Part shown: positions 18,901-40,982 of the stretch, piece by piece
Numbering within the stretch: position 1 is the first letter of the stretch
How the letters are laid out: each line of letters begins with the position of its first letter
Virus record (IMG/VR): IMGVR_UViG_3300045988_007228
Span: 1-42,765 of that record
DNA: 42,765 nucleotides
Strand: one strand, 5' to 3'
Origin: a virus
Made by a program: the position numbers and the translations under genes
The notes under the pieces: generated by a model
Told to the model about the DNA's origin: nothing
Databases searched by the model: none
The model's input: the letters and a program-made list of their open reading frames with translations, nothing else

Positions 18901-20755
18901 CGCATACAAAGAGGCAGAGGCGAACAGCGGCATCGCTCTGTGGAAGCAGATGGGCTTTTACGACACGAACATCGGCCGGGGTGTCCGCGACCAGATCAAG
19001 AACGCCGGGACGTGGAAGGACTCGACGGTCGAATTCCTTATGATGGGCGCAGAATGGGCAGACCGGCTGACGTGGGGACGCTTGTGGAACGCCTGCAAAG
19101 CGGAGGTGCGTGACAAGCAGAAGCTGACCGGCGACGCGCTGCTAAAGGCGACGGCCGAACGCTTCCGGGAGGTCATCTACTCGACGCAGGTGGTGGACAG
19201 CACGATGACACGCAGCCAGGCGATGCGCGCGACCGGCGTGTACGGTGCTGTATCTACGGCCTTTATGTCGGAACCGACGCTGTCGTACAATCTGCTGCTC
19301 AAGGCGTATACGGACTACACGGCGGAGCTGCGCGCGACCGGCGACAAAAAAGAAGCGTGGAGAAACGCAAGCGGGAAAATCGCAAGAGCGCTGGCGACCT
19401 ATCTTGTGTCGGCGACTGCTTCGGGGCTTGCCGAATCAATCGTGGACGCCTGCAGAGACGACGACGAGTACGCCACGTGGTTGGAGAAGTACCTGAGCGC
19501 GCTGATCGGCGCGAAATACAAAGACGGAAAGTTTTCCGGCGTGAACCCGCTTGAAAGCAACCTGTTCATGGACGTGGATATCCTCTCGAAGCTCCCGATC
19601 CTCAAGGATTTCATGTCGATGATCTCCGGGTACGAAAACGACCGGATGGACACGGAATGGATCAGCAACCTGATCGACGCATATCGGATCTGGGACGAGA
19701 CGATCAAGCTGGAGACAGGTGAGCTGGACGAGCCGACGGACGTGACGTACAACGGCAACATGACGCTGTACGGAAAGATCTACAAGACACTCAAGGCCGT
19801 TTCGCAGGCGACCGGCCTGCCGATCAGCGCGGCGAGCCGCGAGGTTGTAACGCTCTGGAACACCATCGCCGGAGCTGTCGGCAAGGGCGACGAGTGGACG
19901 ATCCATACCTATGACTCCGGGCCGGAGAGCCAGATCAAGTACGGCCTGATGGACGGTTACCTCACGCGCGAAGAGGCGCAGCAGCTGCTGGTCGAAAAAG
20001 GGCTCGCGGACAACGAGGATGATGCGTACTGGAAGGTTGACAAGTGGGCGACCGGCGAAGGAAAGTACGACGAGGCGCTCGCTGCGGTGCTCAGCGGCGA
20101 CAAGACCGCCTTCGATGCGCAGGCCAAGGAGTTGAAAGAGCACGGCATCGGCGAGAAGCAGCTGCAGTCTGCGGTGCGCTCGCAGGCAAAGGAGTGGTAC
20201 GTCGGCGACGACGACGGAAAGCGCTCGATCACGAAGGAACAGGCGCTGAAGATCCTGCAGCAGTACGGAGGAAAAGACGCCGACGAGGCGCAGAAACTGG
20301 TGCAGAAGTGGACGTGCGAGGTCGTGACCGGCACGGACTACGACGACATCAAGGATCTGTATCTCGACGGGAAGCTCACGCGGTCTCGCGCGGTAGACAT
20401 GCTGACGCGCTACGGCGGGATGAAGCAGGAGGATGCGCAGAACAAGATCGACACGGCGGACTTTGTGAAGGCACATCCGGAATGCGACGGCATCAGCGTT
20501 GAGGCCGTGCAGAAGTACAACGAGCAGGCGAAAGCGGCCGGCCTGGACGCGGGGACGTTCTGGCAAGCATATCAGTTTAAAAACGACGCAAGGACTACGC
20601 GCGACAGCAACGGCAAGGCCATCAGCGGTCAGGGAGCAATGGACAAGGTCGCTGCGTACATCGACGGGCTGGACATCAGTTCGGCGCAGAAAAACGCTCT
20701 GTTTTTGTGCTTCTACAGCCAAAAATCGCTCGGGAAGATCCGCTGGAGCAATTAA
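9968..20755 (+). CDS. Giant 3,595-aa multidomain protein; polyvalent-protein-like, probable virion-packaged/ejected protein
   Basis: Single uninterrupted ORF of 10.8 kb. Gly-rich hydrophobic segments around aa 325-480. HExxH (SHELTHF, nt 12893-12907) in a zincin-like context. Several blocks resemble LPD-type modules of polyvalent proteins (by memory). Long coiled coils. C-terminal helical repeats. Confidence 0.8.
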   Translation: MTVKKAAISIGDWLKSTGFSAEKTLASAQEQRKNLLQQMDNANASYLTGENRGALQNAFSNYQATMNVLRGAGYDTGNDVDVLRRAVHSSFDFQNQFKDENDFNVSYAYPKKYKGKTRTDVNAALAQLKNTPGAEAEYDWLNKNQMNYWSADELKAQIGAWQNEISGIERQRRNMPRMAAGSTDADYAKRQQEALALSGQIDERKAKIGKAQSLLTRKTYDDEISKWDTQMQRALSDYSKALSVSESANTEMAMAGNSAFVVQNSDYATNARNTVRSFEQQLRDYGYSDQQINGIRNYALTQQHANEASEMAQQAAQEAKEHPWLFSAMSVGTNMMAGAGALDIAAQNALNGTDPFTGEKMAVDRYTKSMVPSTVTNTIRGSVSEDMSGIGSFLYNTGMSMADSLATLAVGGATGLHGAADVILGGAAASQAITDAYDRGASDSQAMSVGLLYGTAEALFEHISLGKLRTFHTSAAAGKKTAKTLVKDMLKQSFVEGSEEVCTDIANVISDAIVMADKSEINQTIAAYQADGMSEDEATRRAWLDWLGHTAQDFAGGMISGGVMTGGDMALNAGMRSANYRETGRQITANDYADILRHAAEESGDENLRKLAGKKQTNRNTGKLYEATQEANLTQAVSDRLGALGTPENDVQELTGLVVKQIKGQELTGKEQRKFDASKQAQRAASEYASLFTRDADRTTNAWARSHMRDAAELERNAIYGGARKTDAGQTQMHHAEKNAEVQVNGEAAQVQALRYDQESGSVELSVKAKNGDVQRVSVKDAKLPEGTRLLAESAEKYGETAPQMYANYQNGQDVERYASAYEVAYSYGRAGVKNYAVLENSGAASYLTPEQRKFAYETGLAAARRESDAKSAAAKSSEIQAGSVTLEGGKLGNVTLAAVNTAGLTRKQTASIDVARKVAEATGVNVVFFESQTGEDGKYLGMNGAYRDGTIYLDVNAGKNNVDTGETAILKTMSHELTHFIQQNSGQYEALKEFVTNHVLESGDSIERLARQKLDNDSTGELTMDGAMDEVVADACEMMLRNTEAVQRLANENRSLAEKIRDWIGDFVKKLRAAFKGDHATHDEARAMLDRMVELQKIWDDALVDAAKVNAGRAGEIASNGVQESSRGKYWRPDLNQQEWSLLNRRMEKELDSGKQYLDESTKWLYAEEKGVKVFALYGVGDGTEATTLYAVGGKQAALQNANIAEYVERSREYDRDGRSVDSWVELLRRKKGSRGRNLSQGQGPTGASGTAHGLYGGSPRGNGGRTSGRGSENQRKVKEQFSLREPVEQVRDLVAVHGLTEQNLRGALALGGLPMPSIAVVKAAQGHSKYGPISMVFGRESIDPQVDPRNKIYGGDAYTPTAPAVEYPVNYDRMRAVENRISELSKSVAGGVFWNSTALQRAGAGEESSISAEEMAQKLARDDSVRAAYLADHGETLEPVMQTKEFNRYGNDALAKLVQKIGVQELAHVEADMETGDYQSAREIEDTVRQIIRDSYEEQHRRFLDRKPELKEKRLDHFMDNNVHTSTVEDFIQDAWAFYEDQGATADEVDRLATSDKLHEATDTEDVKAWLLPQLKSVFGEPGIYNGKERYTASGDRRSFSQLHWEYTLENIVSAMAETQKERGGQTWGTSAGAMQAVSAEDFSSIDEVKAASGRLGKVEGEQYEAAKNAVENLIDQATRAVMRETRPHADNSFDEREIIGDVMMEAAKGKRTARAIQQAFAKEGYSVSEETARRIQEVYQAAAALSTEYFEAKPQRAVGFDEVKVAIVPDNINAELKQQLEAAGVPVQEYRAGDEGQRLRILNSDKSWQFSERDYSYEILTAKPDMRVTNVEDRVSYRPAREARKEIVARAIANAKKIGRTNENGNAVVRVADTGDEVILSAKGLRHGLDRRFSVNAPVTLKAGEIIRNAIRINEFTPENAQVDASYALIGAAKNAKNEPYIVQFVVNRISNEVTDVDVLYAVNAKKEPGALLPDVTGTDVPAILTDSAISIRSLLDYVNRYFPDVLPESVLRHYSYERRPAGKLGESALYQHRDDTRTDRDVLSDAADGDAANVREMEMLRDYREKLQKYSSLTRRLEQQRELAQNAESKEERLKARNRADNLAAQVSRADAQLTRMQNAKPLRELVARELKTRDSLAKENAMLRDRVEYLRGQMQRTKEATTDPKAVREAAKDIIERTGSSIGVDEVMSQLQELYDGIARATGDNGLTYAEIQQRADDLAHDILNDVTAVDDTMYREYEDLRRYFKGQQLVVSAADRGEIPDFGDFRRRNMGRMRLKNGERTNVDQVYAELSELYPEFFDQNRESQPSDQLYRIADVLDAVYSVNEYNPNAQYMREATQSVSNEILEQFFDLPQQRTFADRQAKKDEQQKTHYLNQINELRKANDTRIAELRAQNRKRLQEAIAREREKRDEQIARLKDRNAADKARREESAAVAKYRPRIEQKAKRLSDWLLKNSDKEHIPEPLKLAVGEFLESIDFTSKRALDGGALTKKDIQRSLRYTDRMQKLLDSLRGQNEDGTSDLGLYLDIPDGFLEEMQTHISIAADIISQNPGESVVSKMKLEQLQQLDRMLTILTRSIQNANKLKANAHFETARQAAQATVLELDRLGQAKGRSQRGEKVAGFFSWENTTPYYAFQRFGEGGKAIFEALSAGWDQMAFNTKSVMRFTEQTYKPEEVKAWSKETHTIELESGKTVKMTTAQMMAFYCLSKREQAVGHLLGGGMRVEDIQNSGRKGNIKQAKPFLLTQEDIIKINGALTKRQREVADKLQKYMTQQGSEWGNRVSMERFGYRAFTEENYFPIETMDSDRDERGVPQKENDMFRLLNMSATKSLVYKANNALVVHDIFDVFANHMTDMAKYDALALPILDAMKWYNYREKQKLENGHVLTTTVQRSLEQAYGTDANKYFTTFIKDLNGVNEGGRGEGFAKKMLSNYKVAAVAANLRVALLQPTAYVRAVGVMDPKYLVKAFAEGKSAYKEAEANSGIALWKQMGFYDTNIGRGVRDQIKNAGTWKDSTVEFLMMGAEWADRLTWGRLWNACKAEVRDKQKLTGDALLKATAERFREVIYSTQVVDSTMTRSQAMRATGVYGAVSTAFMSEPTLSYNLLLKAYTDYTAELRATGDKKEAWRNASGKIARALATYLVSATASGLAESIVDACRDDDEYATWLEKYLSALIGAKYKDGKFSGVNPLESNLFMDVDILSKLPILKDFMSMISGYENDRMDTEWISNLIDAYRIWDETIKLETGELDEPTDVTYNGNMTLYGKIYKTLKAVSQATGLPISAASREVVTLWNTIAGAVGKGDEWTIHTYDSGPESQIKYGLMDGYLTREEAQQLLVEKGLADNEDDAYWKVDKWATGEGKYDEALAAVLSGDKTAFDAQAKELKEHGIGEKQLQSAVRSQAKEWYVGDDDGKRSITKEQALKILQQYGGKDADEAQKLVQKWTCEVVTGTDYDDIKDLYLDGKLTRSRAVDMLTRYGGMKQEDAQNKIDTADFVKAHPECDGISVEAVQKYNEQAKAAGLDAGTFWQAYQFKNDARTTRDSNGKAISGQGAMDKVAAYIDGLDISSAQKNALFLCFYSQKSLGKIRWSN
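13611..13805 (+). CDS. Nested out-of-frame 64-codon ORF inside the giant gene (candidate overlapping gene)
   Basis: GAGGAG 8 nt upstream of ATG 13611. Translation MTEMDDLLIRGLSCFGVRKGAGAEIYLRVKGQPELQERLMDYMADHREATAEELLDVARRISAK is globular-looking. The codon-position GC pattern favours this frame over the giant frame here. Confidence 0.5.
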   Translation: MTEMDDLLIRGLSCFGVRKGAGAEIYLRVKGQPELQERLMDYMADHREATAEELLDVARRISAK

Positions 20756-20792: not shown

Positions 20793-20823
20793 TATTGTAG
20801 AATCAATGGAAGGAGGCCACCAC

Positions 20824-22779
20824 ATGACTATCACAATCGCAGACGGCCGCGGGGCGCTGTGGCAGTGGGACACCGGGCGGCGCTTGCGCGTGGGCAGCGG
20901 CGTGGAGCAGGTCCACTATCAAAATAGGTGCTTTGGCCGCAGCGTGGACGTGAACGTCGGCACAGACGGCACGGCCATCATCCCGGACGAGTTGCTGCAG
21001 GACTGCCACACGCTGACGGCCTACGCCTACGTCACCGACGACACCGGCGCGTACACGATGGTGCAGCAGGACTTTGCAGTGCACAAGCGCGCGAAGCCCG
21101 CCGGGTATACATACACCCCGACAGACCAGATGACGTTGCGGACGATCCAGCACCAGATCGGCGACCTTGCTGACCTGACAACGGAGGCAAAGGAAAATCT
21201 TGTTGCGGCCATCAATGAGGTGGCACGGATGGGCGGACGCATGAGCTTGCGCGTAGCGGACGACTACATCCAGTACAGCACAGATAGCGGAAGCGCGTGG
21301 CAAAATCTCATCGCCGTGGCCGAGCTCAAGGGTGCGGACGGTTCGCAAGGCCCAAGAGGCGAGCCCGGCGCGAAGGGTGACCCCGGCGAGAAAGGCGACC
21401 CCGGCGCAAAGGGCGATACGGGCGCAACAGGCCCGGCGGGTCCGCAAGGCCCAGTTGGCGCTCCGGGCAAGAATGGCGCGGATGGCAAACCGGGAGCGGC
21501 TGGTGCTGACGGTGCAGCAGGTGCTGACGGAAAAAGTGCCTATGAATATGCGGCTGAAGGCGGATACGGCGGAACTGAAGAAGAATTTGCTTCTGAACTT
21601 GGCAGACTTTTCGGCGGAAGCACTGCAACGGTTCTTTCGGATAACCTTTTTGATAAAAGTATCGCAACTACAGGCAAGATTTTTTATCATTCCTCTTCTG
21701 GACCGTCTTTGGTTGACGTTAGTAATGGCTTTTATGCTTATGTTCCCCTTCGTGGAGCGGGTACTTATACAGCAATGATTTGTTGGGTTAATCATGGCGA
21801 ATCGTATGCAAAGAGAGTACCGATTTTGAAAGCAGATAAAACTTTCCTGCAAAATGTCACAGGTACTCTTACTAAAATAGATTCAAATTTCGGGTATATC
21901 GAATTTACAATTACAGAAACAATGATATCCAACGGAGCGGCTCTTTATGCTTTTGACGGTTCAACCAATGTTTCACCCACACTTGATGAAGTAATGATTG
22001 TAAAGGACAGAGAATATCCGAGCAAATATATCCCTTACGGCTATATAGAAGTGGAGGTCGAAGGCGCTGACCCAGTGAACATACTTAGCGGAAAGACCGC
22101 CGTATTTCTTGGCGACAGCATTTGTGCAGGAACGACAACTCTTGAGAGTGCGGCGGAATATGGCTATGGCTGGGGCGGACTTATCGGTGAAGCAAACAAA
22201 ATGAAATGGAAAAACTTTGGCAGAAACGGCGGAACTATTGCACCGATTTCTTCTGTTGAAGAAGCAAGGCGGGTTCCGGTACAGGTCGATTTGGCGCTTG
22301 CACAATACCCTGACGCCGATTATGTAATTTTTGAGGGAGGGTGCAACGATGCGGACACCCTTGGAGAAAGCAATCTCGGAACATTTTCTGCGAGCGGATA
22401 TGCTCCCGAAGACACTTCGACTTTCACGGGAGCTTTTGAGGTTCTTGTTCTTAAAATACTCAATTCCTTCCCTAACGCCAAAATCGGATATATCGTTGCA
22501 CAGAAAATGGGGGTTTCGGATGATTACGGTTCTGCAAACAACCGTTATCGAAAATTTTTCGACAGAGCTGTTGAAATCTGCCAAAAGTGGGGAATCCCCG
22601 TTATAGACCTTTGGAACGAAACTCCGCTAAACCCAAAACTTGCGATTCATTACGACAGCTCTCTTACCGCAGACCAAGCAAACGAAAACGAAAAATGCTA
22701 TACGGACGGACAGCACCTTACTCTTACAGGTTACAAAAAACTGCAAAACCCTGTTGAAGAATTTATGAGGAAACTGTAA
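20824..22779 (+). CDS. Tail fibre/spike with collagen-like stalk and C-terminal SGNH/GDSL hydrolase domain
   Basis: Start ATG 20824 has GGAAGGAGG 7 nt upstream (the track start 20806 is less likely). About 23 G-X-Y triplets. SGNH blocks FLGDSICAG, GGCNDA and DGQHLT in the C-terminal part. Confidence 0.75.
   Translation: MTITIADGRGALWQWDTGRRLRVGSGVEQVHYQNRCFGRSVDVNVGTDGTAIIPDELLQDCHTLTAYAYVTDDTGAYTMVQQDFAVHKRAKPAGYTYTPTDQMTLRTIQHQIGDLADLTTEAKENLVAAINEVARMGGRMSLRVADDYIQYSTDSGSAWQNLIAVAELKGADGSQGPRGEPGAKGDPGEKGDPGAKGDTGATGPAGPQGPVGAPGKNGADGKPGAAGADGAAGADGKSAYEYAAEGGYGGTEEEFASELGRLFGGSTATVLSDNLFDKSIATTGKIFYHSSSGPSLVDVSNGFYAYVPLRGAGTYTAMICWVNHGESYAKRVPILKADKTFLQNVTGTLTKIDSNFGYIEFTITETMISNGAALYAFDGSTNVSPTLDEVMIVKDREYPSKYIPYGYIEVEVEGADPVNILSGKTAVFLGDSICAGTTTLESAAEYGYGWGGLIGEANKMKWKNFGRNGGTIAPISSVEEARRVPVQVDLALAQYPDADYVIFEGGCNDADTLGESNLGTFSASGYAPEDTSTFTGAFEVLVLKILNSFPNAKIGYIVAQKMGVSDDYGSANNRYRKFFDRAVEICQKWGIPVIDLWNETPLNPKLAIHYDSSLTADQANENEKCYTDGQHLTLTGYKKLQNPVEEFMRKL
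21331..21536 (+). repeat. Collagen-like G-X-Y triplet repeat region within the fibre gene
   Basis: GADGSQGPRGEPGAKGDPGEKGDPGAKGDTGATGPAGPQGPVGAPGKNGADGKPGAAGADGAAGADGKS. Confidence 0.85.
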
Positions 22780-24467: not shown

Positions 24468-24477
24468 TAATTAAGAA

Positions 24478-24513
24478 ACGCCTGGGAGAACCAATGTTTT
24501 CCCAGACGTTTTT
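24478..24513 (+). terminator. Rho-independent terminator ending the late operon
   Basis: acgcctggga / tcccagacgt 10-bp stem (one mismatch), 12-nt loop, then TTTTT. Confidence 0.65.
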
Positions 24514-24600
24514 CATCAAATAAGAGTATGAAACAGAGTTTGAAATAGGGCTAAATTTGTCTGTATTTCACTGCATTTTTCATTTTTGGGGCAAAAATCA

Positions 24601-24644
24601 GAGAACCGGAAAACACTGATTTATCAGCATATTCCGGCTCTCTT
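24601..24644 (-). terminator. Terminator hairpin downstream of the tRNA (minus strand)
   Basis: gagaaccggaa ... ttccggctctc inverted repeat directly 3' of the tRNA, followed on the minus strand by GATTTTTG. Confidence 0.5.
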
Positions 24645-24720
24645 TGGTCCGAGTGAGAAGATTCGAACTTCCGGCCTCTTGAACCCCATTCAAGCACGCT
24701 ACCAACTGCGCTACACCCGG
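24645..24720 (-). tRNA. tRNA-Pro, anticodon GGG, CCA encoded
   Basis: Hand-folded cloverleaf. Acceptor CCGGGTG/CACTCGG (one G-U pair), D arm GCGC/GCGT, anticodon stem CTTGA/TCAAG, loop AUGGGGU (U33, G37), T arm GGAAG-TTCGAAT-CTTCT, discriminator A plus CCA. 76 nt. Confidence 0.85.
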
Positions 24721-24739
24721 ATATCACATTTACTCAAAT

Positions 24740-24768
24740 AATATAGCACACCGCGCAAAAAAATGCAA
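24740..24768 (-). promoter_or_regulatory. Promoter for tRNA-Pro
   Basis: On the minus strand: TTGCAT (24768-24763), 17-nt spacer, TGcTATATT extended -10 (TATATT = 24745-24740). About 19 nt before the tRNA 5' end. Confidence 0.6.
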
Positions 24769-25000
24769 GAGGGAAATGCGGCTTTCGGGCAGAAAGTTTT
24801 TCGTTACATTTCTTTACGATTGTATCAGAATTTCGAATAGACAGGTTTCAAAATAATCATAAATTTTTTAAATAAATAAATTGAAATTTTTTGGGCGATT
24901 TGTTAACGTGTTCTTAACACCTATGTGGGATGATAAAGTCCCATGCATGCGGTGGCATGCAAGATCCACTTGGCGAAATAGAAACAAAGGAGGAAATATC

Positions 25001-27286
25001 ATGACAGGTAAAAAACTGCAGCGTCTGCTGGCATGCCTGCTGGCGGTCCTGCTTCTGTCGCAGGTCGGCGCGTTCTCGCCGGCTGTGTTCGCGGCGGATG
25101 ACAGTGGCTACACGCTGCATGACGGTACGGCGATTATCCCGGAGGGAGCGTCCGAAGAAAAAGTAAATCAAATCCTCACGCGGACATTGGTGGCTGGATT
25201 TGATGAGATGAGCAAAGAAGATCAGAATACGCTTCTGAGCACTTGCAAGTGGGAGTATTACTGCAAAGGCGAGACTCCCCTCACGCACAAAACAAAAGAT
25301 GCATGGGTCTCTGTTGGCGGATTCAAAATCAAGGAAGGAATTTCCACATATCACTTCCTTGCTCTGTCTGATGCGAAAACGGAATGCAAAGCATATTCTG
25401 TGCGCCTGACCACTGCCACAGACAAGACAGTACAGTTCACCAAGGCAGCGATGCGCGATTCGTCCATCACGCTCAAGCAGGACGCCAGCGTGAAGCTGCC
25501 GTATAAGGAAGACGGCACGCTGGATTTTGACGCGCTGCGTGCAGCCATTCTTCAGCAGGTCGTGGACGAGGGGACTACCCCGTCTCTGACGACGGAGAAT
25601 ACGGAGATCAAGTACTATGCGACGTCTTCAACGGGATGGACTCAGGAATGGGTGAAACTGGATGGCGATAAGGTCAATCTTGCAACTTACCCCGCCATTT
25701 CTGCGGGTGAGCAGCAGATCCAGATCAGCTTCAAGGGCGACGATACTTACAAGGCTGACACTGTGAAAACGACTGTGAACTTCCTTGACCGCGCGGCAAC
25801 TCCGTTCCAGCTCAAGCAGGGCGTGACCGAAGTCTCGATGGTCTACAACAAGGATCAGAGCATCAACTACGAGGCGACCGCGCAGGCTCTGCGCGAGGCG
25901 CTGCTCGTGAGCGCTGATCCGAACGTCTCCATCAACGACGTGACGGTGGAGTATAACGCCGGCACAGATCTTGCCAAGAATTTCCAGCCGCTCAACTTTG
26001 ACGGTTTTGGCTTCAAGTTCGGCCTGAACGAGCAGACCATCCGCTTCACCTGGCGCGGCAACGCAGACTACAAGGCTTATGCGGAGAATGTCGACGTCAA
26101 GATGATCGACAACCGTGAAGACAGCGCCATTGTGCTCAAGCCGAGCATCTCTCTCATCTACAATAAGGACGCCGCTGCCATGACGCAGCAGATTTTTGAA
26201 TATGTCATTGATTGGGACGATTCCACGCTGCCCGACAAGAGCACGCTGAGCGCGGACGACTTTACGATCGAGTATTACGCAACGGCTAAGGTCGTGGCCG
26301 GTGATCTTGGCGGCGACGTAGGACTCCAAAAGTGGGTTCCGATCGAAGGAGAAGAGGGAATCAGTGTTGGCAAACTCCAGTATTTCTACCCCCAGATGGG
26401 CGCTGGTGAGCAGCAGATCCGCGTGACCTTCAACGGCAGCGAGACCTATCGTCCCAGCGAGGCTGAGGAAGGCTCGCTCACGGTCAAGAAGGCAAATGTC
26501 TCCGTCAAGGTGCACTCGACGAGCATCTACGCCGATGAAGTGCCGGGCGAGGGCTTCGTCACCACCGATCCCGTGGACGATTTTGACATCTTCACGGTCT
26601 ATACCGGCGTGTCCAGCGTGTTCGTGCAGCTGCCCGAGCGCTACACAGACAACGCGTTTATCAAGGCTGTTGATCCTGTGCTCGAAAAAGTCGGTCTGCG
26701 GACGATCCAGGATATCATGGACAAGGGCATCACCGTCGGCGAACTCAAGCAGAATCTGGACAAGATCGCCAATGGCAGCGAGTATGCCGTAGTGCGTGAA
26801 GCGCTCAAGCTGATGGGTGTTGACGTCACTACGCTGCAGCAGATCATCAACGTGTTCAACAAGATCACCCTGCTGGACAATGTCCGCATTGCCCTGCGTA
26901 CGCCGGATCAGGTGGGTATCTACACCGTTTACGCGATCACGAACAACGATAACTACAACACCGGCTTCGGTATGGGTGCACTCGTTGTGAAAAAGCACTA
27001 CTCCGGTGTGAAGCTCGACTGGAATCAGAACTTCACCAACGGCAAGCTCTCCGCTGCGGACGTGAAGAACTTCGACTTCGGTGCGACGCTGAGCTATAAC
27101 GGGGAACAAGTCGAGGATCAGTCCTCTGTGCACTACCTGTACTCCGGCTTCACCAGCAGGTGGCGCCCGTATTCGAGCACCACGACGCCCCCGACTGAGC
27201 CCGGCCGCTATGTTGTGACGGTCGTGACTCTGGGCGGCAACTATCAGGCAGCGCCCATCACGCGCGCTTTCCAGATCACCAAGTAA
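25001..27286 (+). CDS. Secreted 761-aa repeat protein (Ig-like/MBG-like domains); cargo (moron) gene
   Basis: AAGGAGG RBS 6 nt before ATG 25001. Sec signal peptide MTGKKLQRLLACLLAVLLLSQVGAFSPAVFA/AD. About four repeats of roughly 115 aa (GEQQIQISFKGDDTYKAD / GEQQIRVTFNGSETYRPS). Two C-terminal MBG-like ends (GIYTVYAITNNDNYNTGF..., PGRYVVTVVTLGGNYQAAPITRAFQITK). No LPXTG. Confidence 0.8.
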   Translation: MTGKKLQRLLACLLAVLLLSQVGAFSPAVFAADDSGYTLHDGTAIIPEGASEEKVNQILTRTLVAGFDEMSKEDQNTLLSTCKWEYYCKGETPLTHKTKDAWVSVGGFKIKEGISTYHFLALSDAKTECKAYSVRLTTATDKTVQFTKAAMRDSSITLKQDASVKLPYKEDGTLDFDALRAAILQQVVDEGTTPSLTTENTEIKYYATSSTGWTQEWVKLDGDKVNLATYPAISAGEQQIQISFKGDDTYKADTVKTTVNFLDRAATPFQLKQGVTEVSMVYNKDQSINYEATAQALREALLVSADPNVSINDVTVEYNAGTDLAKNFQPLNFDGFGFKFGLNEQTIRFTWRGNADYKAYAENVDVKMIDNREDSAIVLKPSISLIYNKDAAAMTQQIFEYVIDWDDSTLPDKSTLSADDFTIEYYATAKVVAGDLGGDVGLQKWVPIEGEEGISVGKLQYFYPQMGAGEQQIRVTFNGSETYRPSEAEEGSLTVKKANVSVKVHSTSIYADEVPGEGFVTTDPVDDFDIFTVYTGVSSVFVQLPERYTDNAFIKAVDPVLEKVGLRTIQDIMDKGITVGELKQNLDKIANGSEYAVVREALKLMGVDVTTLQQIINVFNKITLLDNVRIALRTPDQVGIYTVYAITNNDNYNTGFGMGALVVKKHYSGVKLDWNQNFTNGKLSAADVKNFDFGATLSYNGEQVEDQSSVHYLYSGFTSRWRPYSSTTTPPTEPGRYVVTVVTLGGNYQAAPITRAFQITK

Positions 27287-27299
27287 TTTTCTCGCGTGT

Positions 27300-27333
27300 G
27301 TCTCCCGGGCTTTTTTGCCCGGGAGACATTTTT
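27300..27333. terminator. Strong terminator hairpin after the secreted-protein gene; also faces the leftward switch transcript
   Basis: Perfect 11-bp stem gtctcccgggc / gcccgggagac, TTTTTT loop, then ATTTTT. Confidence 0.8.
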
Positions 27334-27395
27334 GCGCCGGAGGAGACCGGCCGGAGCGGAAAATGAAAATCGCCGAAAATTTTTTCAAAAATAAC

Positions 27396-27424
27396 TTGAC
27401 AGCAGTCGAATCGTCTGGTATATT
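27396..27424 (+). promoter_or_regulatory. Near-consensus promoter pointing rightward, antisense to the repressor stump
   Basis: TTGACA (27396-27401), 17-nt spacer, TATATT (27419-27424), with an A/T-rich UP-like tract upstream. No ORF with an RBS follows within about 200 nt. Confidence 0.55.
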
Positions 27425-27485
27425 AAACAAGCGCTGAGGCGACGAGGCCGAGAGCGGTCCGGACTGCTTTGATGCGTTCGTTCAT
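27423..27485 (-). pseudogene. 20-codon stump of an XRE-family (CI-like) repressor
   Basis: GGAGTG RBS. MNERIKAVRTALGL matches the usual first helix of XRE/HTH_3 phage repressors (MNERIK.LR.ALGL[ST]Q...), then diverges (VASALV) and stops. Sits divergently from the early promoter. Confidence 0.5.
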
Positions 27486-27506
27486 TCGTATCACTCCTCG
27501 CCTAAG

Positions 27507-27535
27507 AGAATAGCGCAACATTGTGAGAATGTCAA
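27507..27535 (-). promoter_or_regulatory. Leftward switch promoter (drives the repressor stump)
   Basis: On the minus strand: TTGACA (27535-27530), 17-nt spacer, TATTCT (27512-27507). Confidence 0.5.
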
Positions 27536-27539
27536 TGTT
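27517..27539. repeat. Inverted repeat AACATTG-N9-CAATGTT in the switch region (operator candidate, or weak terminator for the 27396 promoter)
   Basis: Arms at 27517-27523 and 27533-27539, followed by a T-run on the + strand. Flanked by direct GCGCAACA / TCGCAACA copies. Confidence 0.6.
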
Positions 27540-27566
27540 TTTTCGCAACAAAAGCACAAAATTCTC

Positions 27567-27595
27567 TTGACATCAGTAACAACGTGACGTATTAT
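27567..27595 (+). promoter_or_regulatory. Early rightward promoter
   Basis: TTGACA (27567-27572), 17-nt spacer, TATTAT (27590-27595). Confidence 0.65.
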
Positions 27596-27662
27596 AGTAA
27601 CGAACTCACAAACAACCGTAACAAAAAGACGATTCGCGTGGAACAGAAAGGAGATGAACAAA

Positions 27663-27803
27663 ATGCTGACGAACAACGAGCAGAAAACCATCGAGCGGTT
27701 GGCGACGGTCATGCAGAGCATGGACGATCTGCAGAAGGCGCAGCTTTGCGCTTTTGCGGAAGGGCTGGCGATGGCGCTGGAGCACAGCAAGCGCGCGTCC
27801 TGA
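27663..27803 (+). CDS. 46-aa early protein, unknown function
   Basis: GGAG 9 nt upstream of the ATG. First ORF after the early promoter. Below the ORF-track size cut-off. Confidence 0.5.
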   Translation: MLTNNEQKTIERLATVMQSMDDLQKAQLCAFAEGLAMALEHSKRAS

Positions 27804-27842
27804 GCGCGCCTGCCTGACACAATATAAAAGGAGGAAGGCACG

Positions 27843-28288: not shown

Positions 28289-28440
28289 AGGTATTCGGAG
28301 ATCCGCGCGCGCGGGCAAAGGCACGCCGCTACATCGTCTGGGGCATCGAGGACGGCATCGTCTGTGCGAGCTTCCTCGGCGGCATCGCGCTGGCCGGATG
28401 GGTGTTCCACGTGATTTTCACGGCACTGGGGGTGGCATGA
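28285..28440 (+). CDS. 51-aa membrane protein
   Basis: ATGA overlaps on both sides. One TM span (IVCASFLGGIALAGWVFHVIFTALGV). Confidence 0.45.
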   Translation: MKVFGDPRARAKARRYIVWGIEDGIVCASFLGGIALAGWVFHVIFTALGVA

Positions 28441-29987
28441 TGCAACACCTCGGCGACATCACGAAAATCGACGGCGCGGCAATCGAGCCGGTGTGGTGCG
28501 TGACGGGCGGAAGCCCGTGTCAGGACCTGAGCATCGCGGGCAAGCGTGCCGGTCTCGTAGGCGCGCGAAGCGGCCTGTTTATGGAACAGATTAGAGTGAT
28601 AAAGGAGATGAGGGCACATGACAAGCAGCTTGGCTGGGCAGGAGAGCTTATTCGCCCCAGATACATGGTCTGGGAAAACGTCCCCGGAGCGCTCAGCAGC
28701 AACAATGGCCGAGACTTTGCGGCCGTGCTCGAAGAAACGATCCGCCTCGTCGAACCGGAAGCCCCCGGTATTGAAGTGCCTGCAAAAGGCTGGCCTACCT
28801 GGGGGGGATACCGGGACGTGGACGGACGATGGAGCGTGGCTTGGCGAGTACACGACGCGCAATACTGGGGAGTGCCCCAACGTCGTCGTAGAATCGCGCT
28901 TGTCGCAGATTTTGGAGGCGACACCGCACACGAAATACTGTTTGAGCGCACGGGCGTGTCAGGGGATCCTGAATCGCGCGGCGAGACGCGGGAAAGACTT
29001 GCCGGATATGCTGAAGCAGGCGCTTCGTATGCAGTCCGAATCAGGGGGGGCTGTGAAGGCGGCGGAAAAGGCGCGCTGATCCAGACGGAGAAATCCGGAA
29101 CGCTTGGGACGGGAAACGACCAGACGATTTTCTGCTATGGAATCTCTGCTTACGAAAGCAACGCCATGAAATCCAGCAATCCGAAAAGCGGTGTGTATGT
29201 GGCGGACACCAGCCGGACGCTTGACCTGAATGGCGGGAATCCGGCTTGCAATCAGGGTGGCATTGCCGTGGTGCAAAGGGCGTATCAGATGCAGGGCTTT
29301 GGCGATTACCGCGAAGCTGACGTCGCCAGCTCCTGCAAACAGCGAGACTACAAGGACAGCACAGATCTGGTTATCGGAATTGACGGAGAATGCAATGCCT
29401 ATATAGAACAATATGGCACACTGCGAGCGCACGCGAGCGGCGGTGCGGAAGAAACGCTTATGCATCGCATGGTCGTGCGGCGTCTGACCCCGCTGGAATG
29501 TGAACGGCTTCAGGGATTTCCGGATGGCTGGACGGACATCGGCGACTATACCGACAGCACCGGCAAAAAGCGCAAGACATCCGACAGCGCACGGTACAAG
29601 GCGCTCGGCAACAGCATCGCGCTTCCGTTCTGGCGATGGATGTTCGGGCGCATGGCGGCCTATCTGCCGGAAGGTGCGACACTCGGCAGCCTGTTTGACG
29701 GCATCGGAGGCTTCCCGCTGTGCTGGGAAGACGTGCACGGCGCTGGAACGGCAGTATGGGCAAGCGAGATCGAAGAGTTCCCGATCGCCGTGACCAAGAA
29801 AAGATTTGGAAGTGAAAACATGATTCACTACACGTTGAATATTGAACCGCCGATTGAACCTCCGGCCTACACCTGCCCGATTTGCCCGGTGTGCGGTGCG
29901 GAGACGGACACGGTGTACAAGAACGTTTATGGCGATCCGGTTGGTTGCCCAGGATGTGTCACGGAGGTGGACGCATGGGCGGAATGA
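28437..29987 (+). CDS. DNA (cytosine-5)-methyltransferase with circularly permuted motif order and a C-terminal zinc ribbon
   Basis: Motif IV GGSPCQDLS (PCQ at 28515-28523). Motif VI ENVPG (from 28674). Motif VIII QRRRR (28878-28892). Motif IX RRLTPLECERLQGFPDGWT. Motif X YKALGNSIALP (GNS at 29607-29615). Only then motif I LFDGIGGF (29694-29714) and motif II SEIEEF (29763-29780). Tail is CPICPVC...CPGC. Confidence 0.85.
   Translation: MMQHLGDITKIDGAAIEPVWCVTGGSPCQDLSIAGKRAGLVGARSGLFMEQIRVIKEMRAHDKQLGWAGELIRPRYMVWENVPGALSSNNGRDFAAVLEETIRLVEPEAPGIEVPAKGWPTWGGYRDVDGRWSVAWRVHDAQYWGVPQRRRRIALVADFGGDTAHEILFERTGVSGDPESRGETRERLAGYAEAGASYAVRIRGGCEGGGKGALIQTEKSGTLGTGNDQTIFCYGISAYESNAMKSSNPKSGVYVADTSRTLDLNGGNPACNQGGIAVVQRAYQMQGFGDYREADVASSCKQRDYKDSTDLVIGIDGECNAYIEQYGTLRAHASGGAEETLMHRMVVRRLTPLECERLQGFPDGWTDIGDYTDSTGKKRKTSDSARYKALGNSIALPFWRWMFGRMAAYLPEGATLGSLFDGIGGFPLCWEDVHGAGTAVWASEIEEFPIAVTKKRFGSENMIHYTLNIEPPIEPPAYTCPICPVCGAETDTVYKNVYGDPVGCPGCVTEVDAWAE
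28618..29079 (+). other. 153-codon alternative-frame ORF inside the methyltransferase gene (candidate overlapping ORF; unproven)
   Basis: AAGGAG 10 nt upstream of ATG 28618. Non-junk amino-acid composition. G7 tracts at 28801-28807 and 29044-29050. Confidence 0.25.
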
Positions 29988-37814: not shown

Positions 37815-37818
37815 AGGG

Positions 37819-37849
37819 AAAGCTCCGGGGCGGAAGCCTCGGAGCTTTT
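37819..37849. terminator. Bidirectional terminator between the convergent early operon and the antisense operon
   Basis: aaagctccggg...cctcggagcttt stem of about 12 bp. T-run on the + strand and a T-rich tail on the - strand. Confidence 0.7.
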
Positions 37850-37860
37850 GCCGTATTTTG

Positions 37861-38091
37861 TTACTGCATGGCTTTGGCCATCTCGGCGATCGCGGTCTCG
37901 GCAGCGGCACGCGCCTGATCCAGATGAATGCAGGCCCAGTCCATGCGGATGTACTGCGGCGATTCGATCAGGTTCTCCGGCATGCTTGCCTGCGCGCGGT
38001 CTTCTTCGGCGGACAGATCTGCAAGCTGGTCGCGCAGAGACTCGCACGCAGCGATCAAGGCGCGAAGCCGACGGCGGCGGGTGTTATTCAT
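37861..38091 (-). CDS. Antisense-operon gene E: 76-aa helical protein, unknown function
   Basis: ATG 38091 with GGGAGG 8 nt upstream. Overlaps the stop of gene D by 8 nt (ATGAATAA). MNNTRRRRLRALIAACESLRDQLADLSAEEDRAQASMPENLIESPQY... Confidence 0.6.
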   Translation of the reverse strand: MNNTRRRRLRALIAACESLRDQLADLSAEEDRAQASMPENLIESPQYIRMDWACIHLDQARAAAETAIAEMAKAMQ

Positions 38092-39121
38092 GGGGCGTAC
38101 CTCCCTTCGGTGGCTTGCGCACGGGGTAGATGACGGTCTCACCGCCCGGCGGCATATCGTCCGCGTGGACGTAGGTGGGCGCCGTCCACTTGAGGATCAG
38201 TCGGCGGTCGTCCTGCGGTCCGGCCCAGTAGTGATGCCAATGGCCGCGGCGGGCGTGCGGCCGCTTTTTGCCGCCGGGCGTGCTGCCGTTGGCGTCGGCC
38301 TCGTCTGCCTCCGCGCGCGCTCTTGCACCACGGATGGCCGCGCCCATGCGCACGCCGACATACTGCAGATCGACGGTGCTGGCCTTGCCGACGTCGTCGG
38401 GCTTGCGCGGGATCTTTTGCGTGTGCTTGTGGTCCGGCGCAGCGGCGATGTCCGCGCCGTCGGAGATGATGTACAGGATGATCTGGATGACGCCAAGGAT
38501 GATGCGGCCGAGGGAAGCGACGTCCGAGACGGTGCTGATGTCGACGCCGACATTTTCGCGCGTGCGATCCAGCGTGGCCAGCACACAGTCGCCGATCGTG
38601 CCGGACGGCACAAGGTGCAGCACCTGCGGGACGGTGCCCTGCATATCGTCGTACAGCCACTGCACGCGCAGCTCCGCGGTCGCGCAGTTTACATCGTAGT
38701 CGATCCACGCAAAAAAGCCATCGACGCCTGGCAGCTCCGGGTGGTGGGCCTTGACATAGATACAGGGGTACGGCAGGTGCAGCAGCAGGTCGACCGGCAG
38801 GACGTCGGTGTCCGTCATGTCCTCCGCCTGGGCAAAAAGCATCTCGGCCATGTCGTCATCGACGGCATAGATGATGCGGCTGCGCCGCCACGCCCAGCAG
38901 GCCGTCAGCTCCGCCGACATGGCTGCGGCATCCAGGTCGCTCCGGCCGCGGGCGTAGGTAAGGTAGGTGTAGGCGGCATTGATCGGCAGCGGGCAGTAGT
39001 CCGGCCACGCGAAGCCGTCCTCCCCGTTGGCGGTCGCGCAGCTGTCAAGCTGCCGATAGGCATCCGGGCAGCTGCGCAGCCACTTGCGCAGCAGCGGCAG
39101 CGGGGTTTCGCGGTCACGCAT
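38084..39121 (-). CDS. Antisense-operon gene D: 345-aa protein, unknown function
   Basis: GGAGG RBS. Normal protein composition, whereas the + strand frames here translate as Arg/Val/Gly/Asp junk. Basic, His-rich C-terminal motif RRGHWHHYWAGP. Confidence 0.65.
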   Translation of the reverse strand: MRDRETPLPLLRKWLRSCPDAYRQLDSCATANGEDGFAWPDYCPLPINAAYTYLTYARGRSDLDAAAMSAELTACWAWRRSRIIYAVDDDMAEMLFAQAEDMTDTDVLPVDLLLHLPYPCIYVKAHHPELPGVDGFFAWIDYDVNCATAELRVQWLYDDMQGTVPQVLHLVPSGTIGDCVLATLDRTRENVGVDISTVSDVASLGRIILGVIQIILYIISDGADIAAAPDHKHTQKIPRKPDDVGKASTVDLQYVGVRMGAAIRGARARAEADEADANGSTPGGKKRPHARRGHWHHYWAGPQDDRRLILKWTAPTYVHADDMPPGGETVIYPVRKPPKGGTPHE

Positions 39122-39139
39122 CTGTATCGCCTCCCCCCA

Positions 39140-39781
39140 TCACAGTCCGCACTGCTTGGCCAGCAGCAGGCGCACATACGGTGGACACTCGCGGCTCCCG
39201 GAGATCCACCCCTGCAGCGTGCGCAAAGGGATGGCAAAACGCGCCGCAAAGTCCGTCTGCGACAGGCCGGTGTGCTGCACGATCTCGTTGACGGTCAGGT
39301 GCGCGTAGCTCCAGATGGGCCGCAGTTCTGCGGCCAAGGCCGGGAGCTCGTCCTCGCTGGCGCCAAAGATGTCTGACGTCGCAACGTCGGACACGAACGC
39401 ATCCGGGTCATCGTAGGCAGCGGCCTCCTGCAGCGCTGCCGAAAACTGCTTATCCGTGAGATCGTAGTGCTCATCCAGATCGTCTGCGCTGGCATAGATC
39501 CAGGCGTGCGCGACATCGGTTGCCGGGTGTCCGCGCTTGGGGTCGCGGCGCAGCGTGATCGCCACATCTACGCCGCCCTTTCCGCCGAGGATGCCTGGCT
39601 TGTACTCGGCACGGTAGCCGACGATGGCGGTGTATGACCCACGGATACCGGCGCTCGAGACGAGGCGCTGGAGGCTCCCGTTGATCGCGTCTGTGAGTGT
39701 GGTGCCGCTGATCGTGTCCGGCCACTGGCTGCCGGACACGTACACTTCGTATTCGTTTGCAGTGATGCCTTTGCTTTTCAT
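39140..39781 (-). CDS. Antisense-operon gene C: 213-aa protein with C-terminal XRE-type HTH
   Basis: C-terminus LTVNEIVQHTGLSQTDFAARFAIPLRTLQGWISGSRECPPYVRLLL is an antitoxin/regulator-like HTH. The N-terminal 130 aa are unknown. Confidence 0.65.
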   Translation of the reverse strand: MKSKGITANEYEVYVSGSQWPDTISGTTLTDAINGSLQRLVSSAGIRGSYTAIVGYRAEYKPGILGGKGGVDVAITLRRDPKRGHPATDVAHAWIYASADDLDEHYDLTDKQFSAALQEAAAYDDPDAFVSDVATSDIFGASEDELPALAAELRPIWSYAHLTVNEIVQHTGLSQTDFAARFAIPLRTLQGWISGSRECPPYVRLLLAKQCGL

Positions 39782-40503
39782 TGCGTTTTTCCTCCTTGGG
39801 TAGCCTCACGCCAGGCTGCCAGAGCCTTGGCATAGTTTTTGAGCGCGTCGGCGTCATCGTTGCTGATGCGGACCTCCGCATTGTCAACGTAGATGCGGTA
39901 GCCATAATCCGCCGTGCCGTAGACCTTGCCGTTCCAGCGGCCGGCCGGGCAGCATACCGGCTTGACCGGCTCCGTGATGCCGGATGCCTCAGCGGCCGCG
40001 ATGCGCTCGCGCTTGGCGGCGGCTTGTTTGGCAAGATACTCCGTGTCTACAATGCTATCGTCGATCACGGCACCGAGCGCCTTCGCACGCTCGATCTCGT
40101 CGTAGGCGTCCTCCTGCGGGACGACCTTGATCCATTTTTGCTCTCCGCGCTGGACGCTATAGCCGTAGGTGATGTAGTCATCCGCAAAGACCCAGCGGTA
40201 CCCGAGCGCCTTAATGTCGTCCTTGCGCGGCATGGTGCCGCCGCCGAAAAACAGGACGACCGGCGTGTTGTCTTTGTACGGATAGCCGGTCATATGCAGC
40301 GTCAGGGGCAGCTCAGCATCCACTGCGGCGGAAGCCTCGCGCTCGGATGCCTTGCGCGCAGTGTAGCAAGCATTGCACTCATCAAAGTTTGCGGCTGCCC
40401 ACGCCTCCCAGCCATCCGCCTCGCGGCGATTGCGGCAGATTTTGGTGCGCGTAAACGTTGCGCCGCAGGTGGCGCAGGTGCAGGTTGCAGTTGCTTTTGA
40501 CAT
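39778..40503 (-). CDS. Antisense-operon gene B: 241-aa protein with N-terminal zinc ribbon
   Basis: AAGGAG RBS. CTCATCG...DECNACY. ATGA-coupled to gene C. Confidence 0.65.
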   Translation of the reverse strand: MSKATATCTCATCGATFTRTKICRNRREADGWEAWAAANFDECNACYTARKASEREASAAVDAELPLTLHMTGYPYKDNTPVVLFFGGGTMPRKDDIKALGYRWVFADDYITYGYSVQRGEQKWIKVVPQEDAYDEIERAKALGAVIDDSIVDTEYLAKQAAAKRERIAAAEASGITEPVKPVCCPAGRWNGKVYGTADYGYRIYVDNAEVRISNDDADALKNYAKALAAWREATQGGKTQ

Positions 40504-40550
40504 GATGATTTATCTCCTTTGTTGTGTACCAAATGTGTATCCGCACGAGA

Positions 40551-40826
40551 TTACTTGCCGACCCAGCCACAGAGGTCAAACCATGTGGTCGGGCAGCTCA
40601 GCTTGTACGTGACGCCGGAGCCGGTAGCGTTATACACCTCGTAGTTGGCCTCCATGTAGCACGGCGCGCAGCCGTTGGAGCGGCGAGAGATGTCCGCGAG
40701 ATCATCGAGCTCCGAGATCGGCTGCTCGGTCTCGAGATACAGTGCGTGTGCCTCGCTTGTGATGGGATCGCGGAGGATCTCCATGCTGTGCTTTGCCTGC
40801 AGTGCTTTTGCCTCGTTGCGTGTCAT
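40551..40826 (-). CDS. Antisense-operon gene A: 91-aa protein, unknown function
   Basis: First ORF after the consensus promoter. AAGGA RBS. Four Cys in the C-terminal half. Confidence 0.55.
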   Translation of the reverse strand: MTRNEAKALQAKHSMEILRDPITSEAHALYLETEQPISELDDLADISRRSNGCAPCYMEANYEVYNATGSGVTYKLSCPTTWFDLCGWVGK

Positions 40827-40879
40827 AGTTTTCGTCCTTTCCGGCCGGCGGCCTGTCGTGTTGTCCTCTTGATGGTTTA

Positions 40880-40908
40880 ATTATAACGCTCATTGAGCGC
40901 AATGTCAA
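40880..40908 (-). promoter_or_regulatory. Consensus sigma-A-type promoter of the antisense operon
   Basis: On the minus strand: TTGACA (40908-40903), exactly 17 nt, TATAAT (40885-40880). Confidence 0.7.
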
Positions 40909-40925
40909 TAGTTTTTGCGCTCAAT
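40887..40925. repeat. Operator-like palindromes overlapping that promoter
   Basis: CGCTCA-t-TGAGCG (40887-40899) lies in the promoter spacer. An 11-bp inverted repeat ATTGAGCGCAA (40892-40902) / TTGCGCTCAAT (40915-40925) brackets the -35 element. Confidence 0.7.
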
Positions 40926-40935
40926 CGGCGTAAAA

Positions 40936-40982
40936 AGATGCACAAAAAATGGTTCGGAAGTTGTGCAAGATGCAGAAAATGC
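40936..40982 (+). repeat. Direct repeat AGATGCA(C/G)AAAA(AA)TG x2 upstream of terS (late-promoter/activator site or pac-related candidate)
   Basis: Copies at 40936-40952 and 40968-40982, 32 bp apart. No good -10/-35 pair for terS is nearby. Confidence 0.4.

Follow-up and report, generated by a model that had tools for sequence, protein, structure and literature searches.

The window analysed here, 42,765 nucleotides (nt) of viral DNA (positions 1 to 42,765 of IMG/VR record IMGVR_UViG_3300045988_007228), contains a block of five minus-strand genes, designated A to E, that lies between a set of recombination and replication genes and terS. We found that these genes are a swappable accessory cassette in a hotspot, and our analysis suggests that the cassette is an acr-aca-like one, used in counter-defence or in conflict between mobile elements and held under Aca10-type autorepression, a reading to which we assign a probability of roughly 0.65. 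An earlier note on the same DNA had recognised no family in any of the five products and had offered three options for the block: defence or superinfection exclusion, anti-defence, or a maintenance/immunity module. Homology searches revised the first statement, since they placed the product of gene D in the AcrVA2/FinQ family and pointed to an Aca10-like helix-turn-helix (HTH) in the product of gene C. Among the three options, anti-defence best fits the results.

By sequence comparison, the predicted product of gene D is a full-length member of the AcrVA2/FinQ family. A phmmer search aligned residues 17 to 320 of D with residues 18 to 318 (of 323) of the AcrVA2 structure (PDB 7CI1) at an E value of 4.2e-10 and with an alignment accuracy of 0.60, and D matched phrog_6160 over 308 of 322 profile positions (5.5e-36). 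A precomputed Pfam label likewise assigned it to PF26125 (AcrVA2-like). The local Pfam scan returned nothing for D, but the local copy may predate the PF26125 model; NCBIfam and PADLOC scans gave nothing useful. AcrVA2 binds the nascent N-terminal peptide of Cas12a (LSKT), which leads to loss of the Cas12a mRNA, and its activity is impaired by mutation of W79 or D89 and abolished by mutation of H286, R288 or H291 (Marino et al., bioRxiv 10.1101/2022.11.29.518452). All five of these residues are kept in D, where they pair with W78, D88, H289, R291 and H294, respectively. The His-rich tail that ends D, RRGHWHHYW, corresponds to the family's KRPHxRRGHWHxYW motif (HxR...H).

Compared with AcrVA2 of a Moraxella bovoculi prophage (PDB 7CI1/7CI2; PF26125), D thus shows end-to-end homology over ∼300 residues with the functional residues kept, and both are borne by a phage or prophage in an accessory position. 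Unlike AcrVA2, D is a remote homologue that has no AcrVA1 or AcrVA3 neighbours and stands beside an Aca10-like regulator instead, in a phage from a high-GC human-gut host. The second described member of the family is FinQ of enterobacterial plasmids, an AcrVA2 homologue that inhibits transfer of a rival F plasmid and lowers tra mRNA (bioRxiv 10.1101/2022.11.29.518452). FinQ, which is known from F-like as well as I-like plasmids as a fertility inhibition factor, shares the C-terminal motif with D and shows that the family can target things other than Cas12a. It differs in being plasmid-borne and in acting on the transfer genes of a rival plasmid, and of D only the C-terminal region aligned by BLAST, at 44% identity across 56 residues, with plasmid genes that carry the annotation "protein finQ". 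The AcrVA2 family diverges towards the N terminus, the half linked to target specificity (bioRxiv 10.1101/2022.11.29.518452). Here, the family is found on mobile elements: D itself belongs to a phage genome and to a cassette with presence/absence variation, and its homologues lie on plasmids and other phages. A separate observation concerns a 200-kb Bacillota contig (L033:8001-13100; compared loci are designated by L and a number), on which a 43%-identical D homologue is followed by a 186-amino-acid (aa) gene, a 118-aa ribbon-helix-helix (RHH) gene and an open reading frame (ORF) of 1,024 aa that resembles a type I restriction (HsdR-like) subunit by eye. An AcrVA2-like gene may therefore stand beside a restriction system there.

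The other recognisable product, C, is probably the autorepressor of the palindromes in the cassette promoter, acting through its C-terminal module (C'). The earlier note had considered C a plausible autoregulator, and the co-variation of operator and recognition helix described below argues for this assignment. C' carries an Xre-type HTH (HTH_3 was found in 19 of 53 family members), was modelled by AlphaFold2 (AF2) with a predicted local distance difference test (pLDDT) score above 90, and belongs to a family of 616 clusters at 50% identity, most of them free-standing proteins of 105 to 120 aa and some fused to other domains. A word-based search with C retrieved close relatives only. When the C'-family profile was run against the PDB, Aca10 (7XI5) was matched at 1.3e-3, and an unrelated Xre protein, 2ppx, outscored it (2.6e-7). 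A distant relationship of the C' HTH to Aca10 is accordingly weak when judged by sequence similarity.

Aca10 is the repressor of the acrIC7-acrIC6-aca10 operon, and control of anti-CRISPR operons at the promoter by Aca repressors has been published for Aca1, Aca2 and Aca10 (PMC9410881). The Aca10 site defined by electrophoretic mobility shift assay, IR2 (AATACGCTCATTGAGCGTATT), is situated in a strong promoter between the -35 and -10 elements, and another repeat is found at the -35 element (PMC9410881). In the window, operator O2 occupies the same position in the -35/-10 spacer, and its 13-bp core (CGCTCATTGAGCG, 40887-40899) is identical to that of IR2; an operator variant present in L015 and L040 agrees with 18 of the 19 bases of the Aca10 minimal site. 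Moreover, Q22, Q37 and R44, the experimentally important DNA-contact residues of Aca10, have Q175, Q190 and R197 of C as their counterparts in the alignment, the chain numbering having been checked via G49 (PMC9410881). The weak sequence link between C' and Aca10 is thus strengthened by three independent points, namely the contact residues, the sequence and position of the operator, and the co-variation of operator and helix. The acrIC7-acrIC6-aca10 operon of Pseudomonas citronellolis also resembles the cassette in that the repressor is encoded in its own operon. In contrast to C, Aca10 is a 65-aa single-domain protein encoded last, from a host of another phylum, to which C has marginal sequence similarity; C' is fused to a 105-aa domain and encoded in mid-operon.

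The promoter with which C would interact matches the sigma-70-type consensus at all 12 positions, as the earlier note had seen. An exact TTGACA-N16-18-TATAAT occurred nowhere else in the 42.7-kb window and in none of 100 shuffles. O2 and the second operator, O1, which lies just upstream of the -35 element, form an inverted repeat with 22-nt arms that flank the -35 element and are 82% complementary. The spacer palindrome and the 11-bp inverted repeat reported earlier are therefore both real, with the repeat extending further than had been noticed; the palindrome had been quoted on the plus strand, where its central base is T (A on the transcribed strand).

Comparison of related loci revealed that the operators change together with the recognition helix of the DNA-binding protein. 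The helix TLQGWISGSRE, in at least 20 loci, is paired with the CGCTCA/TGAGCG operator, whereas five loci, among them one that retains D, pair TLQRW(V/I)(S/A)GDRD with TACGTCC../..GGCGTA, and two pair TI(E/G)NWCTG(A/T)S with CACC-N5-GGTG. In one further locus, an RHH protein in the place of C goes along with a fourth operator, TAAAC-N5-GTTTA. O1 changes in step with O2 in every variant, and the rest of the scaffold is conserved. An additional double-HTH protein of 112 to 117 aa, present in some cassettes, was considered as the operator binder and rejected, because its sequence hardly changes between loci whose operators differ.

Several points weigh against this interpretation. As a single sequence, C showed only weak similarity to Aca10 (E=0.054); the Aca10 dimer residue G49 is not kept, being aligned with a tyrosine in C'; and C' comprises 108 aa with an extra N-terminal helical part, compared to 65 aa in Aca10. 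The 13-mer palindrome alone is not rare, since it was matched in 31 of 100 shuffles when one mismatch was allowed, so that the weight rests on its position and conservation. For D, ∼1,800 AcrVA2 homologues are encoded on mobile elements, mostly where Cas12a is absent (bioRxiv 10.1101/2022.11.29.518452), so that the label "anti-CRISPR" is not established for D. The family also includes FinQ, which is aimed at a rival plasmid rather than at host defence. Searches with A, B, the N-terminal domain of C (N-domain) and E gave no hint of function. Finally, we infer transcription and repression of the operon as well as the activity and targets of D from what was observed, that is, from sequence features, family memberships, operator identity, co-variation, and presence or absence of the block.

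The accessory nature of the block became evident from sibling prophages with an empty site. In L057 and L060, RusA is followed by the same terminator and, ∼130 bp on, by terS, with nothing between them. The empty-site sequence matches the window up to position 37860, so that the left edge of the cassette coincides with the stop codon of E, and resumes from ∼40950. The proposal of an accessory cassette in a hotspot was borne out by these siblings. They also bear on the idea that A to E are ordinary housekeeping or regulatory genes, such as regulators of late genes or packaging, which could be prompted by the location of the block directly upstream of terS and by its DNA-binding and zinc-ribbon proteins. 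Since some sibling prophages lack the whole block (and others have different contents), it cannot be essential, and no replication or packaging family matched any of A to E. We consider this the least probable of the explanations.

At the same site in related phages, gene content varied widely. We observed A-B-C'-D-E, with C' representing the C-terminal half of C only; B-C-D without A; 61aa-B-C'-112aa HTH-D; 164aa-263aa-C'-HTH-D; 61aa-B'(148 aa)-149aa RHH-D; 97aa-233aa-C'-E, with neither B nor D; and one gene set ending in C'-HTH-E. The five genes are thus not an obligate unit. Constant across the variants is a regulatory scaffold in which the promoter keeps its position and is accompanied by two operators, the leader and a DNA-binding gene. 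The terminator hairpin at 37818-37849 scored on both strands, in agreement with its earlier description as bidirectional, and is common to the RusA-side early operon (plus strand) and the cassette (minus strand); as it is unchanged in siblings without the cassette, it is part of the phage backbone. All cassette variants have the leader (..ACGACAGGCC-loop-GGCCGGAAAGGA..) ahead of their first gene, with an invariant 4-bp stem and a variable loop of 3 to 4 nt. The idea that the leader hairpin is a structured RNA element found no support, as it was no stabler than shuffles (z=0.47) and had no Rfam match. In L016, the leader was repeated before gene B (L016:4560-4612), and the conserved leader may be a portable ribosome-binding unit. 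The whole block had no blastn match in 50,697 phage records.

At the right edge of the cassette, an inverted repeat (TGCACAA-N15-TTGTGCA, 40939-40967) has one arm in the cassette and the other in the backbone upstream of terS, and AGATGCACAAAAAATG (cassette) and AGATGCAGAAAATG (backbone) resemble an imperfect direct repeat. These repeats may be a trace of the cassette's recombining into the site. In other phage contigs, distant C' relatives follow small acidic proteins and lie close to lysis genes or to a recombinase gene. One small acidic protein was shared (51% identity, E=6e-28) by L034 (4213-4443), an integrative conjugative element (ICE)-like element where it lies ∼0.5 kb upstream of a B-like/HTH cassette and ahead of the cassette promoter, and L050 (3699-3983), an unrelated phage contig where it lies directly upstream of a C'-family gene. 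This sharing suggests that a common pool of cargo genes circulates among such cassettes.

A toxin-antitoxin or addiction module, in which B (or D) would be the toxin and C an Xre-type antitoxin repressing the promoter, would account for the translational coupling of B to C and for the reappearance of a B-like gene followed by an HTH gene in L034. The HTH of C also scored weakly against an Xre-like antitoxin family and against HigA2, the sole credible structural match of C. However, no toxin family matched B or D, and D has a known non-toxin family. In addition, both B and D are missing beside C' in L046-L048 and L056, and L011 and L018 have a replacement for B or a truncated form of it, which is unexpected for a matched pair. 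A module of this kind is, in our view, very unlikely.

A, B, the C N-domain and E are swappable cargo without known relatives. Pfam, NCBIfam and PADLOC scans gave nothing useful for A, B and E, and PHROGs returned only families of "unknown function." All five proteins of the cassette are acidic (pI 4.8-5.7). For A, no Pfam, PHROG, NCBIfam, PADLOC or PDB match was obtained; the gene is missing in L019, its place is taken by other small genes in L016 and L018, and an A-like domain (35% identity) is fused into the 233-aa protein of L047. B has conserved zinc-ribbon cysteines (C10, C13, C43 and C46) and homologues in 48 clusters only, none of them named. Its AF2 model (pLDDT 91) found no significant fold match in the PDB; among viral folds, it matched ∼150-aa "zinc-ribbon" proteins and, weakly, a DUF5710 protein. 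A distant B homologue adjoins an HTH_3 gene in L034, where promoter palindromes, a leader hairpin and small genes are arranged around it as in the cassette, and another lies 1.8 kb from a further AcrVA2-like gene (L037). E matched phrog_4068 (3e-9), a family of unknown function, and had only close relatives among 5.8 billion proteins and no match in phage records. We rejected E as a fixed partner of D, because D is followed by a membrane protein in phage JCL1032 and by an unrelated 71-aa protein in contig MT835573, and because E is found without D elsewhere (L046-L048, L056 and L059); some loci with D, conversely, lack E.

The C N-domain gave a poor AF2 model (pLDDT 55-75) with no fold match, and one free-standing homologue of it was found (P0199, 102 aa). 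The fusion is optional, as C' stands alone, without this domain, in L011, L014, L016 and L045-L048. AcrIIA1, AcrIIA13, AcrIIA15 and AcrIF24 similarly carry a repressor domain of their own, to which the joining of another domain to the operon's repressor in C is comparable; no homology between these proteins and C was found. That the C N-domain is itself an inhibitor is a guess.

If the acr-aca-like reading is correct, entry of the phage genome would be followed by transcription from the consensus promoter (40908-40880), yielding a predicted ∼3-kb A-B-C-D-E transcript that would end at the 37818-37849 hairpin. As C accumulates, its Aca10-like HTH would bind O2 and the weaker O1, probably as a dimer, as suggested by homology, operator identity and co-variation; occupation of O2 and O1 would then block RNA polymerase and shut down the operon. 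Meanwhile, D might act as AcrVA2 does, reading the nascent N-terminal peptide of its target and causing loss of the target mRNA via the HxR...H motif, as its family membership would predict. The target need not be Cas12a. A, B, the C N-domain and E would be further cargo, most likely independent inhibitors or helpers, given that they are gained and lost separately from D.

Alternatively, the block could be an exclusion or defence module of a resident prophage, with D as a FinQ-like silencer of competing plasmids or phages, the other genes helping, and low, autorepressed expression in lysogens. The effect of FinQ on F plasmid transfer and tra mRNA, and the match of finQ genes to the D C terminus, would be consistent with such a role. 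So would the siblings that bear the cassette, which are integrated prophages with an integrase and CI/Cro genes. In sibling prophages, which are located beside proBA-proC on contigs of 160 to 415 kb (for example ERZ28615409 scaffold_66 and GCA_964261755.1), the lysis and early genes are separated by a tyrosine integrase gene, a 222-aa gene and CI/Cro-like HTH genes. Furthermore, Lactobacillus phage JCL1032, Pasteurella phage CFP3 and the human-gut phage contig MT835573 each have a D homologue at a prophage end, with different neighbours each time, and this is a position typical of lysogenic-conversion genes. By contrast, the window represents a circular genome whose lysis-to-early stretch (24468-27842) contained only an 801-aa ORF and neither integrase nor CI. 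No PADLOC defence model matched A to E at E≤0.1, and anti-CRISPR operons are described as having this very arrangement, an Aca10-type operator within a perfect promoter (PMC9410881). The absence of integrase and CI from the circular genome and the arrangement of promoter and autorepressor likewise leave the lysogen-expressed maintenance or immunity module envisaged earlier without support. We regard an exclusion module as unlikely, noting that it shares its molecular mechanism with the anti-defence reading and differs in the target only.

A broader version of the acr-aca-like reading can be put forward tentatively. C' would represent a large and as yet unnamed group of autorepressors related to Aca10 (at least 616 clusters at 50% identity, often fused to other domains), whose presence would flag plug-in counter-defence cassettes in phages of gut Bacillota and in conjugative elements; A, B, the C N-domain, E and the alternative cargo (61, 97, 233 and 164 aa) would be new inhibitors; D would act on something other than Cas12a, silencing it through mRNA decay triggered by the nascent chain; and the three natural operator/helix pairs on one scaffold would supply a ready-made orthogonal set of repressors and promoters.

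The coordinates of all features are compiled in Table 1. The positions of the five genes and the sizes of their products agreed with the earlier description, as did the overlaps: B overlaps C by 4 nt (ATGA), to which it is translationally coupled, and the start of E lies over the stop of D within an overlap of 8 nt (ATGAATAA).

Table 1. Location of the cassette, its genes and its expression signals in the window
Feature	Position	Strand	Description
Whole accessory cassette	37861 to ~40949	-	~3.09 kb when measured against the empty site of sibling prophages
Gene A	40551-40826	-	91 aa, acidic (pI 4.8), 4 Cys; first gene of the operon
Gene B	39778-40503	-	241 aa; N-terminal Cys4 zinc ribbon, central alpha/beta domain, C-terminal domain
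Gene C	39140-39781	-	213 aa; N-domain and C' repressor module
C N-domain (residues 1-105)	39467-39781	-	Predicted mostly beta
C' module (C residues 106-213)	39140-39466	-	Helical extension and Xre-type HTH; putative Aca10-like autorepressor
Gene D	38084-39121	-	345 aa; predicted AcrVA2/FinQ-family protein
Gene E	37861-38091	-	76 aa, predicted helical, pI 5.3
Sigma-70-type promoter TTGACA-17-TATAAT	40908..40880	-	Consensus match 12/12, 17-nt spacer
Operator O2 in promoter spacer	40881-40902	both	At 40887-40899, perfect palindrome CGCTCA-N-TGAGCG
Operator O1, just upstream of -35	40915-40936	both	Degenerate copy of O2: perfect TGAGCG half-site, 4/6 of left half-site
Predicted 5' untranslated leader	40827-40873	-	Short GGCC-loop-GGCC hairpin, then ribosome-binding site GGAAAGGA; putative transcription start
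Two-way intrinsic terminator hairpin	37818-37849	both	14-bp stem (+), 8-bp stem (-), T-run after each

The surroundings of the block were as had been proposed: it is flanked by YqaJ, RecT, SSB and RusA at one end and by terS, TerL and portal at the opposite end. Its orientation against the rest of the genome was confirmed over the surrounding 21 kb, where all other called genes lie on the opposite strand, and by the AT skew, which was negative at 38-41 kb only. The window corresponds to ENA contig ERZ28585921 scaffold_32. An exact 55-bp direct repeat at both contig ends (1-55 and 42711-42765) indicated a circular assembly and a real genome of ∼42,710 bp, with terL spanning the junction. In the assembly collection, the identical D protein was indexed in 84 blocks and an early 76-aa protein of this phage family in 1,950 blocks, from which we conclude that this human-gut phage family is common. 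Judged against its siblings, the window phage may be a relative that is defective in lysogeny or organised in another way.

Further observations were made elsewhere in the genome. The 801-aa ORF of the lysis-to-early stretch has a hydrophobic stretch ∼50 residues after its listed TTG start, which could be a signal peptide should translation really begin at the internal Met, and shows a weak immunoglobulin-like (Big_3_5) match and lowered G+C. In the tail region, a single plus-strand ORF of 3,595 aa (9968-20755) takes up a quarter of the genome. It is followed on the same strand by a gene for a 657-aa protein (20806-22779) with a long collagen-like Gly-X-Y run. The C-terminal part of this protein coincides with the stretch of lowest G+C in the window (0.45, 22-23 kb), and the protein is probably a tail fibre whose receptor-binding or enzymatic end has been swapped. 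The early region encodes a cytosine-C5 DNA methylase of 515 to 529 aa (28398-29987, plus strand). At the corresponding position of the siblings, the gene is split, exchanged for Dam or D12-class methylases, or absent, and this position is a second variable counter-restriction site in the same phage family.

Both recognisable components of the cassette come from described families and its layout is that of acr-aca loci, so that nothing here overturns current understanding. The repressor-operator assignment is unusually clear for one made from sequence alone, with the Aca10 operator core found in a host of another phylum and three classes that co-vary. The C' family could serve to mark new inhibitors in gene-neighbourhood searches of Bacillota phages, for which the list of known anti-defence genes is short. 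No bacterial protein other than AcrVA2 has been reported to read a nascent peptide and then destroy a specific mRNA, and the targets of its homologues are mostly unknown. An abundant gut-phage D in a cleanly delimited cassette, with siblings that have or lack it, would offer a practical case for finding a second target of the AcrVA2 family.

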